A DNA stretch of 64,000 bases from the IMG/VR virus record IMGVR_UViG_3300020042_012680, positions 10,248 to 74,247 of that record; one strand, 5' to 3'. Below are positions 9,293 to 22,400 of this stretch, in pieces (position 1 is the stretch's first letter; every line of letters begins with the position of its first letter). The DNA comes from a virus (lineage: Duplodnaviria > Caudoviricetes). Below the pieces are notes generated by a model. That model saw nothing but the letters and a program-made list of their open reading frames with translations. It was not told the DNA's origin and searched no databases. A program made the translations under genes and the position numbers.

Positions 9293-10696
9293 ATGAACAC
9301 ATCTTCTGAAATATATAATTTGATCGTAAGTGGAAGTAAAGACATAAACTCCAACCTAACTTCTTTAACACCATCGACACCAATAAACTTTTATGAGATA
9401 GACCTTTCAGAAATATCACCAAACTTAAAAAACTTTAATAATACGGGAGAGCAGCCGTTAAATGGAGGAGTATTAAGGTTATATAATGAATATTTCTTAT
9501 ATAACATTAGCAATAACCCATCCGCTGCCATAAAATGGAAAAATAATTTTTATTATCCATTTCCAATAGTAGCAGATGGATTTGATTATACAAGCGCAGG
9601 TACTCTTCCAACACCTAGGCTTGCCATGGGTAACTTTAGTCCAGATAAATCTTTAAACTCTTTTTATAAATACATTAGAATGCAAATTGAATCTTTAGGC
9701 GATATAGTCGGGGCAAAGTTCACGAGAATAAAAACTTTTGTTAAATATCTAAAAGGTGAAAATTTTCAAGGAGGAACGAATATATTCAATACTCAATCTA
9801 GCATATATGAAGTTGAGCTACCAAAAGAAATCTATTATATAGACAGAAAAACTATAGAAAATAAAGTCATGGTAGAGTATCAATTAGCTTCTATACTCGA
9901 CATAGAAAACGTAGTTCTTCCAGCTAGGACGATACTAGCAAAAAAATGTAACTTTCAATACAGAGGAGAAAATTGTTGCTATGAATACAATTCAAGACTA
10001 ACAGAAAAACATAGTGGCTGTTACGCTGGTATTGAAAATAATTACGCTACAATTCGCGGTTTACAATCTGCACCTCCAGTAGCAACAGAAAATGACCAAT
10101 TATTTATTGGAGGTATTTTTTCTGAAGGGCCAGCCGCAGTATCAGCTGCAGCCAGAATTACTGGCGGGTTAGGTAATTCTGGAGTCTGGCAAAATACCGC
10201 TAATTACGTTTCTGGAGATTTTGTTTTTATTGAAAAAAATAAATTAAAATATTATTTTGTTTGTATTAATAATCATCATGCAGACGAGTTTAATTACCCA
10301 CCAAACACTAACTATTGGACTTCAGATACATGTGCAAAAAATATAAATTCTTGCAGACTAAGATGGTTAAAGAATCCAGCATTTAGACCTGTAATTTGGC
10401 CTACAGATAGAAATGGAGAAACTTACGATCAAACAATTAGTAGAATCTTTGCTCAACAAAGAGCTAACTCAACAATCTATGCAGCAAAACCTGGAGCAGT
10501 ACAATATACTGCAAACGAAGTTAATTCTCAATGGTTAACGGGAATAAATGGAGCTCCAGTTTATTTTCCTAGAAGGCCAGGAGCAGAAAATCCAACATCT
10601 GAACAAGCGCATGGTATTCCCAAAGATTATCAAGGTAATTACTTAAATGGGCATTTACCTTTCGGTGGATTTCCTGGTGCAGGAAAACCGTCATGA
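9293..10696 (+). CDS. Minor tail protein L (lambda gpL-like, probable Fe-S binding)
   Basis: GAKFTRIKTFVKYL, YYIDRK, LPARTI..CNFQYRGENC, CAKNINSCRLR and terminal LPFGGFPG. Start moved from 9218 to ATG 9293. Confidence 0.88.
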   Translation: MNTSSEIYNLIVSGSKDINSNLTSLTPSTPINFYEIDLSEISPNLKNFNNTGEQPLNGGVLRLYNEYFLYNISNNPSAAIKWKNNFYYPFPIVADGFDYTSAGTLPTPRLAMGNFSPDKSLNSFYKYIRMQIESLGDIVGAKFTRIKTFVKYLKGENFQGGTNIFNTQSSIYEVELPKEIYYIDRKTIENKVMVEYQLASILDIENVVLPARTILAKKCNFQYRGENCCYEYNSRLTEKHSGCYAGIENNYATIRGLQSAPPVATENDQLFIGGIFSEGPAAVSAAARITGGLGNSGVWQNTANYVSGDFVFIEKNKLKYYFVCINNHHADEFNYPPNTNYWTSDTCAKNINSCRLRWLKNPAFRPVIWPTDRNGETYDQTISRIFAQQRANSTIYAAKPGAVQYTANEVNSQWLTGINGAPVYFPRRPGAENPTSEQAHGIPKDYQGNYLNGHLPFGGFPGAGKPS

Positions 10697-19400: not shown

Positions 19401-22400
19401 ATGCGCTTATCAATCCTGAAGTTAAAGTTGACAAAGCTATCGTTCCTCCAAATTTTGCTCCACCTCCTAAAGATGCAGCTCCTAAACCAAATGAAGCAGC
19501 TTGACCCACAGTCGAGACGATTTGTTTATTTCTTTCACCTTCAATTCTAGAATTAACAGTATCTACCAATTTATTAATTCCAATTATAACTGCTGTTACT
19601 ACTGCTTGTTGAAGAAGAAATCTAGCTGTAGAAGAAGTTGCTAGAGCTACTCCTCCCGCTACAATTGGTGCAGCAAAATTAGGTATAAAACCATTAGATG
19701 CTCCTGCAGTTTTAGCTTTGTTACCAGCCCTAGATACTCCTTGACCCAAACCAAGTGGCTCATCTTTTGTGTTGTAGACTCCTAGACCAAGAGGGTTCGA
19801 AGCAGAAGTCAATCTTTGGTCTTTACCAATTTTTATTCTAGATGGAGATGTTCCAGCCATAACTTCTCTATTTATAGAATCATTTAGTGCTGAAAAGTTA
19901 GGTATAAAACCTTTAGATTTACTTTTACTAGAAGAAGTTTTTTGAATTTTACCATTTAATAATTCTGTAAATGGGAGACCAGGTATATTAGAATTGTAAG
20001 CTTTTTTAATTATAGATCTAATTGCTGTAGAATCAGAGGTTAATTTTGCATCAGCTTTAATTAAGTTAGATTTAAATCCAAATCTTGATTTAAATTGTCC
20101 GCTTGCTGCTCCAGATTCTTCAAAATCAAACGGCCTTCTGAAATCGTCATCTACAGATTGTACAAATTTTCCTGGATTTTTTGTAGCAATTTTTACTACT
20201 GTTTCAAAAAGATCTCCTATAGCTCCTGGAGGTAAGAAGCTTTTACCATTTTTAATTTTTCCAAGCACTTCATTTACTCCATCTCCTTGATTCCCTAACG
20301 CACTACCCATAAACTGTGTTGCCACATTAGCTAAAGGTGGTAAAATTTGCTCTGTTAATAATTTAATAAACTCGTTGGGCTTTTGCTTATCTAAAGCATC
20401 TAAAGACCTAACTTGTACCTTATCAAATCGAACCATGTTTTCACCTATAGATGGGTCGGTTTTAACTGCGTTAGAAAACATTGGTAATGTAGCCAGCGAA
20501 GTAGAGGTAGGCACATCACCGCTTTTGCCTCTTAAAGATAAAACTCCTAAAGTTTCTGCGTTAAAAGGTTTAGTTATTCTAGTTGGACTTTTAGTAGAAG
20601 CTCTACCTGCCAATATCTTTTGTTTGGCTAAATTTACAGCTGTTGATTCGGCCGCTGTTAAACGATTAGTAAATGTTGAATTTGATGTTAGTGATCTTAT
20701 GTCTCCTTTGGATAAAGCTTTAGTTATTGCTACTTGTACAGCTGGAGATATTGCTGAGAAATTTGGTATAAAACCAGAGCTTGCATATGGATTAAATCCA
20801 TATACTGAATCAAATTGACTTTTATAATTTTTCCCAGCTTTGCTAGTTTGAGGAGGCATAATTGCTGGTTGATCCATTCCAGGAAATTTTTTAACTTTTT
20901 CTGCTGAATTATAAGTTACAGAACCTTCTCCAGGAATATTCATTTTACGAACATATCCAGGGTCATATCCACCAGCTAATGCTCCTAAAATTTCTGAACT
21001 AGCAAAATTAGGAATAAATCCTGCACTCTTTGCTTTTAATACTCCACCTTTAGCAGATAATCCTTTTCCAATTAATCCAGTAGTTAAAGTAGTTGATAAT
21101 GAAGCGGCTTTTTGTCTTTCTAAAGTTTGCTGTCTTATAATTGCAAGAATTTTATTTTCAACATCTAAAACAGTTATTTCTTTATTGTAAATTGCTTGAA
21201 CGAGAGCAGGTTCTTGAGATAAAACTTGATTTATTTTTGCTTGTATTGCTGCTCTTTCTTCAGATTTTGTATTTAAACTCAAAAGAACTTGTAATGATTG
21301 TGCAGCAAATTTTCCTAGATTAAATACTAATTTAGCAACAACCGCAGTAAGCAAAACTATTCCAGGACCAGAAACAAACGCCCCAATTTGCTCAAATATA
21401 CCTTTGGCAATTTTGTTTCCAATACCACCTCCATCTACATCAATACTTTCTAGTCCTTTATTTAATAAATTTAATAAATTTTCTATACTTGGCCCAAAAG
21501 ATACTTTTCCAAGATCAGAACCTACTTTAGTTAAATTTACAAAAGTTTTATTAATTAAAGAAGATAAAGTTTGATTTAAAGCTTCATTTCGAGTTATGGC
21601 TTGATCTGTTGCGCTAGATGAAGTTCTAAGTGCATTGTTATAAACAGAATATTCTTTTCCTAAGTCTGCTAATGCTGCTTTTAAAATATTGATTTGGAAA
21701 ACGCCACCAACAGTTTCTGCTACTTGAGCTCTTTGGGAATCACCTAAAGTTCCGAAAGTACTTGCAAGATTAGATAATACTTGAATTGCTGGTAAGGTAG
21801 TTCCTTCTAAAGTTCTAACTTGAATACCTAATTGTTCTAATTGGTCAAGAGTATCTGTCCTTTGTATTCTAGTAAAAATTGTTTTTAAAGAATTTCCGAT
21901 AACTGCTCCGCCTCTAGCAGTGGTTTGCTGAACACTTGTAACAATTGCTAATAATTCATCAAAATCAACTCCTGCATCTTGAGCAGAACTACCAACACGC
22001 TTAATAGCTTCTGCAAGGTCTGCACTACTAACAGCAAAAGCAGCGTCAACGTTAGCTAATTTATTAATAATAGTGGTAGAATCTAAAGCGGCATCACTAA
22101 AACTATTAATTGTTGCTGTTAAAGCTTCCACAGAAGCTACTGTATCTAAACCGCTTAAACGAGTTAAAATAAGAGCATCTTTTGTTCTTTTCAGTGTTGC
22201 TTCTAAACCTAAACCTTGACGAGAAAACTCTGTTGCAGCTCGAGCAACTGCGTCAAAACTTTGGCCAGTGCTTTTTGCTATATCAAATAGCCCAGAGCCG
22301 AAAGTGTTTAGACTTTTTGTGCTTACATTTAATATAACATTAATATCAGTTAATGATTTTTGCACATCTATAGTGCTTCTTATTAATGAAGAAAATGCCT

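Follow-up and report, generated by a model that had tools for sequence, protein, structure and literature searches.

We analyzed a 64,000-nucleotide stretch of a Caudoviricetes genome (herein the window; positions 10,248 through 74,247 of IMG/VR record IMGVR_UViG_3300020042_012680), in which a gene on the minus strand (16420 through 22635) encodes a very long, mainly helical protein of 2071 residues within a tail gene cluster. A PhageMin_Tail domain (PF10145; residues 120 through 311, 21703 through 22278, minus strand) is found near its N terminus by Pfam (E = 2e-26; 93.5 bits versus a gathering cut-off of 33.2), and many PHROG tape-measure families match it (best E = 7e-49). By these profile matches the product is a tape measure protein (TMP) of the PhageMin_Tail/TP901 family. 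Its middle part holds modules separated by repeats of the hexapeptide GFIPNF, and comparison with relatives indicates that this peptide marks the boundary at which related phages exchange modules around one large domain, here called B.

Four copies of GFIPNF, all read from the minus strand like the gene itself, punctuate the array: motif 1 at residues 539 through 544 (21004 through 21021), motif 2 at 621 through 626 (20758 through 20775), motif 3 at 909 through 914 (19894 through 19911; preceded by a Lys/Ser-rich linker), and motif 4 at 982 through 987 (19675 through 19692). They enclose module A (residues 545 through 620; 20776 through 21003), module B (residues 627 through 908), and module C (residues 915 through 981; 19693 through 19893). 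Within B we distinguish a linker with predicted helices (residues 627 through 690; 20566 through 20757) from the domain proper (residues 691 through 890; 19966 through 20565), which includes most of a conserved core (residues 787 through 891; 19963 through 20277). Hydrophobic segments flank the array on both sides: a membrane-helix-like one before it (residues ∼416 through 445; 21301 through 21390; 19-residue Kyte-Doolittle windows >1.5) and a second, also located by hydropathy, after it (residues ∼1006 through 1024; 19564 through 19620).

The Junction Hexapeptide Is Conserved among Relatives

An initial annotation, made from the sequence of the window, had reported GFIPNF at four sites and regarded it as conserved at the protein level. 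All four copies are present, the segments between them measure 76, 282, and 67 residues, and the copies use differing synonymous codons. From composition, 5e-5 occurrences would be expected by chance versus the 4 observed; no hexapeptide occurred more than twice in any of 2000 shuffles, and the rest of the 74,247-bp genome contains no further GFIPNF, whichever frame is read. A word-indexed search with residues 530 through 1000 retrieved at least 947 TMP-sized relatives; across this family the motif follows the consensus G-[FYLH]-[IV]-P-N-[FY], with 2 to 14 copies per protein. Among the relatives listed, 101 of 120 have four G-[FYL]-[IV]-P-N-[FY] motifs at aligned positions, motif 1 included, and more distant proteins carry GHVPNF or HGVPNF at equivalent places. 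A DNA pattern of two motifs spaced 66 to 76 codons apart identified 69 loci in IMG/VR, whose open reading frames (ORFs) each carry 2 to 8 motifs. The synonymous codon differences and the wide conservation among relatives bear out the initial assertion and show, at the level of translated sequence, selection on the hexapeptide as a protein element. A literature search for GFIPNF returned no published mention; a variant of the motif matched only an unrelated human serum proteomics paper.

Each motif is preceded by a flexible stretch rich in Lys, Ser, Ala, and Gly. A strictly conserved hexapeptide set in flexible basic linkers at each module boundary could mark processing sites, in which case G-phi-[IV]-P-N-[FY] would either cleave itself through its Asn or be cut by a protease of phage or host origin, and the TMP would be a polyprotein releasing its modules during assembly or once ejected. 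The invariant Pro-Asn-aromatic sequence recalls Asn-dependent cleavages, and TMP processing is known in other phages, as in the conversion of lambda gpH to H*. We consider this reading unlikely, however: no protease domain was found adjoining the TMP, and no relative was seen with its gene naturally split at a motif. In the AlphaFold monomer model motif 3 is disordered and makes no contacts, and a disordered hexapeptide is unlikely to cleave itself without a structured catalytic environment.

Modules Are Exchanged at the Motif

Sliding-window identity between the window TMP and its relatives is 80 to 100% over residues 1 through 630, falls to ∼20% over residues 631 through 900, recovers to 60 to 90% over residues 901 through 990, and drops again to ∼20% over residues 991 through 1080. 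Junction alignments place the breaks exactly at motifs 2, 3, and 4, in agreement with the initial view that the hexapeptide delimits modules: relatives are near-identical through motif 2 and unrelated immediately thereafter, similarity restarts at motif 3, and it is lost right after motif 4. At fourfold-degenerate sites, module A is 82 to 91% identical to its counterparts in four relatives (L055, L065, L072, and L076), versus 51 to 56% for the N-terminal 538 residues; B is unalignable in the same comparisons. Because synonymous sites in A are so much more alike than those N-terminal to it, uneven constraint alone is insufficient to account for the identity breaks; we conclude that A was exchanged recently and that the breakpoint lies at motif 2. 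The synonymous-site evidence at the A|B junction thus upholds the earlier proposal of swapping at the hexapeptides, module B being exchanged by recombination.

The number of modules among relatives ranges from 1 to 13, with a motif at every junction. The order is A-B-C in the window and A-x(155)-B-C in L104, where an extra module of 155 residues with a motif on both sides lies between A and B; there are seven modules in L098 and thirteen in P0172. The latter protein (4831 residues) has 14 junction motifs bounding one B-type, two C-type, and a terminal A-type module together with nine others that match none of the three module hidden Markov models (HMMs; A, C, and B core). A C-type module stands last in most, but not all, of the arrays examined. 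The inter-motif segments vary among relatives as had been anticipated, both in B, at ∼20% identity, and in module count. Other enzyme domains, also anticipated there, did not appear: in seven multi-motif TMPs Pfam finds only PhageMin_Tail, and for these seven the idea that the extra modules are known enzymes was rejected, none bearing a Pfam domain. The alignments and arrays show the motif to be, as far as sequence comparison reaches, the exact boundary at which modules are exchanged, inserted, or lost among related phages. The modular TMP architecture is real and apparently undescribed.

The small modules A and C are the constant part of the array. Module A is 76 to 79 residues long in about 100 relatives, with 67 to 99% identity and a ratio of nonsynonymous to synonymous substitution rates (dN/dS) of 0.12 to 0.27; module C measures 65 to 70 residues and is 70 to 93% identical. 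The possibility that A and C are repeats of one small domain was dropped (hhalign E = 0.31). No match to A, B, or C was found in Pfam, PHROGs, or PDB sequences, and the segment from motif 1 through motif 2 had no usable match in the ESM Atlas.

Module B Variants Belong to One Domain Superfamily

Among 101 relatives the B segment is 227 to 296 residues long and, by BLAST, falls into three unconnected families, the A and C flanks being 75 to 96% identical. All three families have a common C-terminal core of GxxFE, hDF (h, hydrophobic), FxF, (D/E)xK, and KxY blocks. Comparison of the families with hhalign aligns the same blocks (E = 5e-3, 4e-4, and 1e-4), bridging B modules match two family HMMs, and a jackhmmer search from the B core of the window gathers 121 of 140 non-identical large modules. 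G807, F810, E811, D/E862, K864, and K878 are invariant in all 121, and D837 is kept in 118; the residues of the E...D...(D/E)xK pattern are thus conserved, as the initial annotation implied. When 1.8 billion representative proteins were searched with HMMER, B was found only inside large TMPs, at residues ∼660 through 930, or in short fragments.

Selection differs sharply between the two parts of B. Against its closest relatives the domain (residues 691 through 890) has a dN/dS of 0.11 to 0.14, versus 0.97 to 1.17 for the linker (residues 627 through 690), which is replaced (∼20% identity) even in P0014, a protein otherwise 97 to 100% identical; the linker is a separate hypervariable sub-module. 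Divergence of B in place by positive selection was rejected on the basis of the low dN/dS of the domain and of synonymous sites in the neighboring module A that are nearly identical where B is unrelated. From the low ratio and the unity of the jackhmmer set it follows that B is an old, constrained domain with re-assorted alleles, and not a series of different enzymes. The picture of enzymatic cargo swapped as different enzymes is accordingly replaced by one of divergent homologs of a single TMP-specific domain. Taken at the level of sequence, the comparisons show B as an ancient TMP-specific superfamily under purifying selection whose deeply diverged alleles move between phages by recombination at the motifs.

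The Predicted Fold of Module B and Its Candidate Active Site

Two AlphaFold models of B were obtained, model 1 with a mean predicted local distance difference test score (pLDDT) of 81.3 and a predicted template modeling score (pTM) of 0.65 from 33 sequences, and model 2 with values of 83.1 and 0.74 from 48 sequences. The 282-residue segment had been described as nonhelical; the models instead give an α/β domain with long helices. In both, the order of elements is β-β-β-α-β-α-α-α(E811)-α-loop(D837)-α-β(DxK)-α, and the strand bearing DxK joins the four N-terminal strands. E811, in the GDLFE block (codon 20203 through 20205, minus strand), lies on a predicted helix (118 through 133 of model 2), and D862-A-K864 of the ADAK block (20044 through 20052, minus strand) lies on a predicted β-strand (175 through 181 of model 2). 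D837, in the PFDF block (codon 20125 through 20127, minus strand; pLDDT of the block 61 to 69), falls in the least confident loop of the models (pLDDT 57 to 69).

The initial annotation had matched GDLFE, PFDF, and ADAK to the active site of a PD-(D/E)xK nuclease. The three blocks are present in that order, but the nuclease fold was not confirmed: the predicted topology is α/β and noncanonical, the α-β-β-β-α-β core is not seen in either of the two models, and no nuclease was matched. Foldseek, VIA-align, and BFVD searches returned none among the structure matches of B. Sequence and profile searches of Pfam with the single sequence and with 33 B-containing members found no shared family, and profile searches of the PDB produced chance-level matches only (E at least 0.04). 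PADLOC and NCBIfam yielded nothing meaningful for ten diverse modules, and the ESM Atlas held no usable match to the B domain. For the very divergent PD-(D/E)xK clan, HMMER is a weak tool.

A true PD-(D/E)xK nuclease, carried by the TMP as cargo and delivered into the host to cut DNA or to handle the end of the phage DNA, is accordingly possible though doubtful. As in that superfamily, E811 sits on a helix, D837 in a hydrophobic-D-F context, and (D/E)862-x-K864 on a strand followed by a helix with the invariant K878. The order and the spacing (26 and 25 residues) are canonical and are kept in 118 to 121 of 121 modules, drawn from three families unlinked by BLAST. In the models the helix and strand assignments of E811 and DxK agree with canonical placement, and low confidence around D837 means that the model could be wrong there. 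Unlike the superfamily, however, the B model lacks β1 and β2 at the expected place, its topology is not that of the canonical core, and fold, sequence, and profile libraries all failed to return a nuclease. The E...D...(D/E)xK pattern thus fits a restriction-endonuclease-like active site, which the predicted fold does not confirm.

Peptidoglycan hydrolases are the usual enzymes embedded in TMPs, which often contain muralytic domains, and B might be one whose fold has gone unrecognised. Catalysis by Glu/Asp pairs is typical of glycosidases, and one relative, P0030, bears a glucosaminidase domain (residues 2145 through 2277). That domain is far from the array and outside it, however, and coexists with B rather than replacing it. 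B matched no lysozyme, transglycosylase, amidase, or peptidase family or fold, and no such domain was matched in A or C either; invariant Lys residues are also unusual for such enzymes. We regard this assignment as improbable.

A further reading, which we hold only tentatively, is that B is a nonenzymatic interaction domain, which would either contact an entry factor of the host inner membrane or periplasm or form the surface seen by host defence or superinfection exclusion; host range or evasion would then explain the allelic diversity, and the invariant residues would have structural roles. Deep allelic diversity swapped between otherwise similar phages, a linker with dN/dS near 1, and the position of B between two hydrophobic segments all favor it. 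TMP ejection, contact with inner-membrane factors, and recognition by a defence nuclease have been described for lambda and Bas14, and TMP regions set ManYZ dependence and SNIPE sensitivity in lambda-like and Bas14 phages (bioRxiv 10.1101/2025.11.03.685801). Such contacts and such recognition offer a plausible driver for the exchange of alleles. Set against an interaction domain, seven invariant residues, four of them charged, across alleles of ∼20% identity would be expected of an active or metal site more than of a variable binding surface, and the domain core is under strong purifying selection.

Comparison with Known Delivery Systems

Like other TP901/PhageMin_Tail TMPs, the protein is very long, has an N-terminal PF10145 domain and hydrophobic segments, is encoded in the tail cluster, and contains embedded domains outside the ruler. 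Embedded domains are known from the Rpf-like motifs of mycobacteriophage TM4 and the peptidase of T5 pb2. The embedded domains of the present family differ in forming an array bounded by a repeated hexapeptide, and the large domain has no match in any known family, muralytic or otherwise.

In polymorphic toxins (CdiA with VENN, Rhs with PxxxxDPxGL, and MuF toxins of temperate phages; PMC3482391, PMC5576092) a short conserved peptide likewise marks a variable module, recombination occurs there, and the carrier is delivered into another cell. The variable module of the TMP differs in being internal (residues 627 through 908 of 2071) and not C-terminal, and its alleles are homologous and not different toxin folds. 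B type is not tracked by any gene close to the TMP, the neighbors being 66 to 90% identical whatever the B family, and there is therefore no immunity-like partner as in MuF, Rhs, and CdiA. The likeness to MuF polymorphic toxins suggested at the outset fails on these points, with no co-varying or adjacent immunity gene, an internal module, and homologous variants. The polyvalent proteins of phages and conjugative elements (PMC5512222) are also large, multidomain, delivered with invading DNA, and variable in domain number. They differ in being head- or DNA-associated, with recognisable enzyme domains and often a processing peptidase; the window TMP has neither such domains nor such a peptidase. 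Tape measure proteins are not mentioned in that paper.

Genomic Context and Distribution

The source genome is a single contig of 74,247 bp with 31% G+C. A tail L-like gene (9218 through 10696) and a J-like gene (11806 through 15006), both lambda-like tail-tip genes, adjoin the TMP gene on the opposite strand, and the TMP gene is the last of its strand block. The tail-tip genes (9218 through 16417, plus strand) and the TMP gene (16420 through 22635, minus strand) are convergent, with a 2-bp gap before the 3′ end of the latter, a layout that departs from the usual co-linear order from TMP to tip. Two genes directly upstream of the TMP gene (22697 through 24469, minus strand; 336 and 252 residues) lie where tail assembly chaperones would be encoded; neither matches Pfam or PHROG, yet both are 60 to 90% conserved in relatives.

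The TMP gene has two further features. Its C-terminal part (window 16700 through 17720; residues ∼1640 through 1690 and ∼1926 through 1978) holds a second repeated element, [FY]-[AS]-x-G-G, which occurs four times (residues 1643, 1763, 1929, and 1974), two copies being followed by DD[VI]PA[ML]L..GE[YF]VI[RK]K..V..YG; in this part the PHROG matches are to other TMP families (phrog_3547 and 13338). An antisense ORF of 147 residues (20375 through 20818, plus strand) lies within the gene over module B and is most likely spurious; its sole counterpart among the loci is in the 82%-identical L062, which likely reflects just nucleotide conservation of the TMP gene.

When cultured-phage genomes were searched with tblastn, only the N-terminal TMP domain was matched. 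A double-motif scan of 185,579 species genomes found two contigs only, both from metagenome-assembled genomes (MAGs); these contigs (L107 and L108), labeled Saccharibacteria and Proteobacteria, are probably binned phage contigs. The family is thus large and without cultured members, and its near-absence from bacterial genomes makes these phages probably virulent. A Flavobacteriales MAG is the labeled source of one relative, which is weak host evidence.

A Recombining Module Array in the Tape Measure Protein

The explanation that we favor, with a probability of about 0.6 for the whole, is that the TMP of an uncultured siphovirus (74 kb; lambda-like tail tip) carries a motif-delimited, recombining array of modules around B. 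The array lies between two hydrophobic segments of the TMP, each junction being G-[FYLH]-[IV]-P-N-[FY] after a flexible linker. B would have a catalytic or metal-binding function, exerted on ejection of the TMP as the genome is delivered. The hexapeptide at the junctions would be a functional short linear element, serving as a docking or assembly strand or as a processing site, and its conservation may keep in-frame module shuffling viable, much as VENN or DPxGL do in polymorphic toxins.

Several observations weigh against this explanation. The hhalign probabilities between B families are only 7 to 53%, and the jackhmmer search was run on a small custom database, so its E-values are to be read accordingly. 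Searches of Pfam, PHROGs, NCBIfam, PADLOC, PDB sequences and folds, BFVD, and the ESM Atlas detected no relative of B of known function. The invariant charged residues of B could be structural, as a salt bridge or metal site, rather than catalytic, and a folded domain of 200 residues, in three copies per TMP trimer, would not easily be accommodated in the lumen of the tail tube. The monomer model, a prediction, does not reveal the role of motif 3.

A bolder version would make the TMP a tail-delivered polyprotein in which cleavage at the motifs releases modules into the infected cell, among them a new, topologically unusual nuclease-like enzyme, and in which recombination at these same motifs re-assorts the modules. 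We think it quite improbable; if true, the tail ruler would double as a polymorphic system for delivering effectors.

TMPs enter the cell ahead of all other phage proteins and are targets of host defences; little is known of their passage across the envelope or of the functions of their non-ruler parts. The recombining array described here gives the family a simple grammar, comprising a junction peptide of six residues, a pair of constant small modules, and at least one large module shuffled between phages, and the large module combines sharply defined invariant residues with the lack of a recognisable fold. Four charged residues and one hexapeptide are thereby available as mutable targets for asking whether siphophage tails deliver enzymes, and the same targets also bear on how module exchange alters host range or escape from defence.

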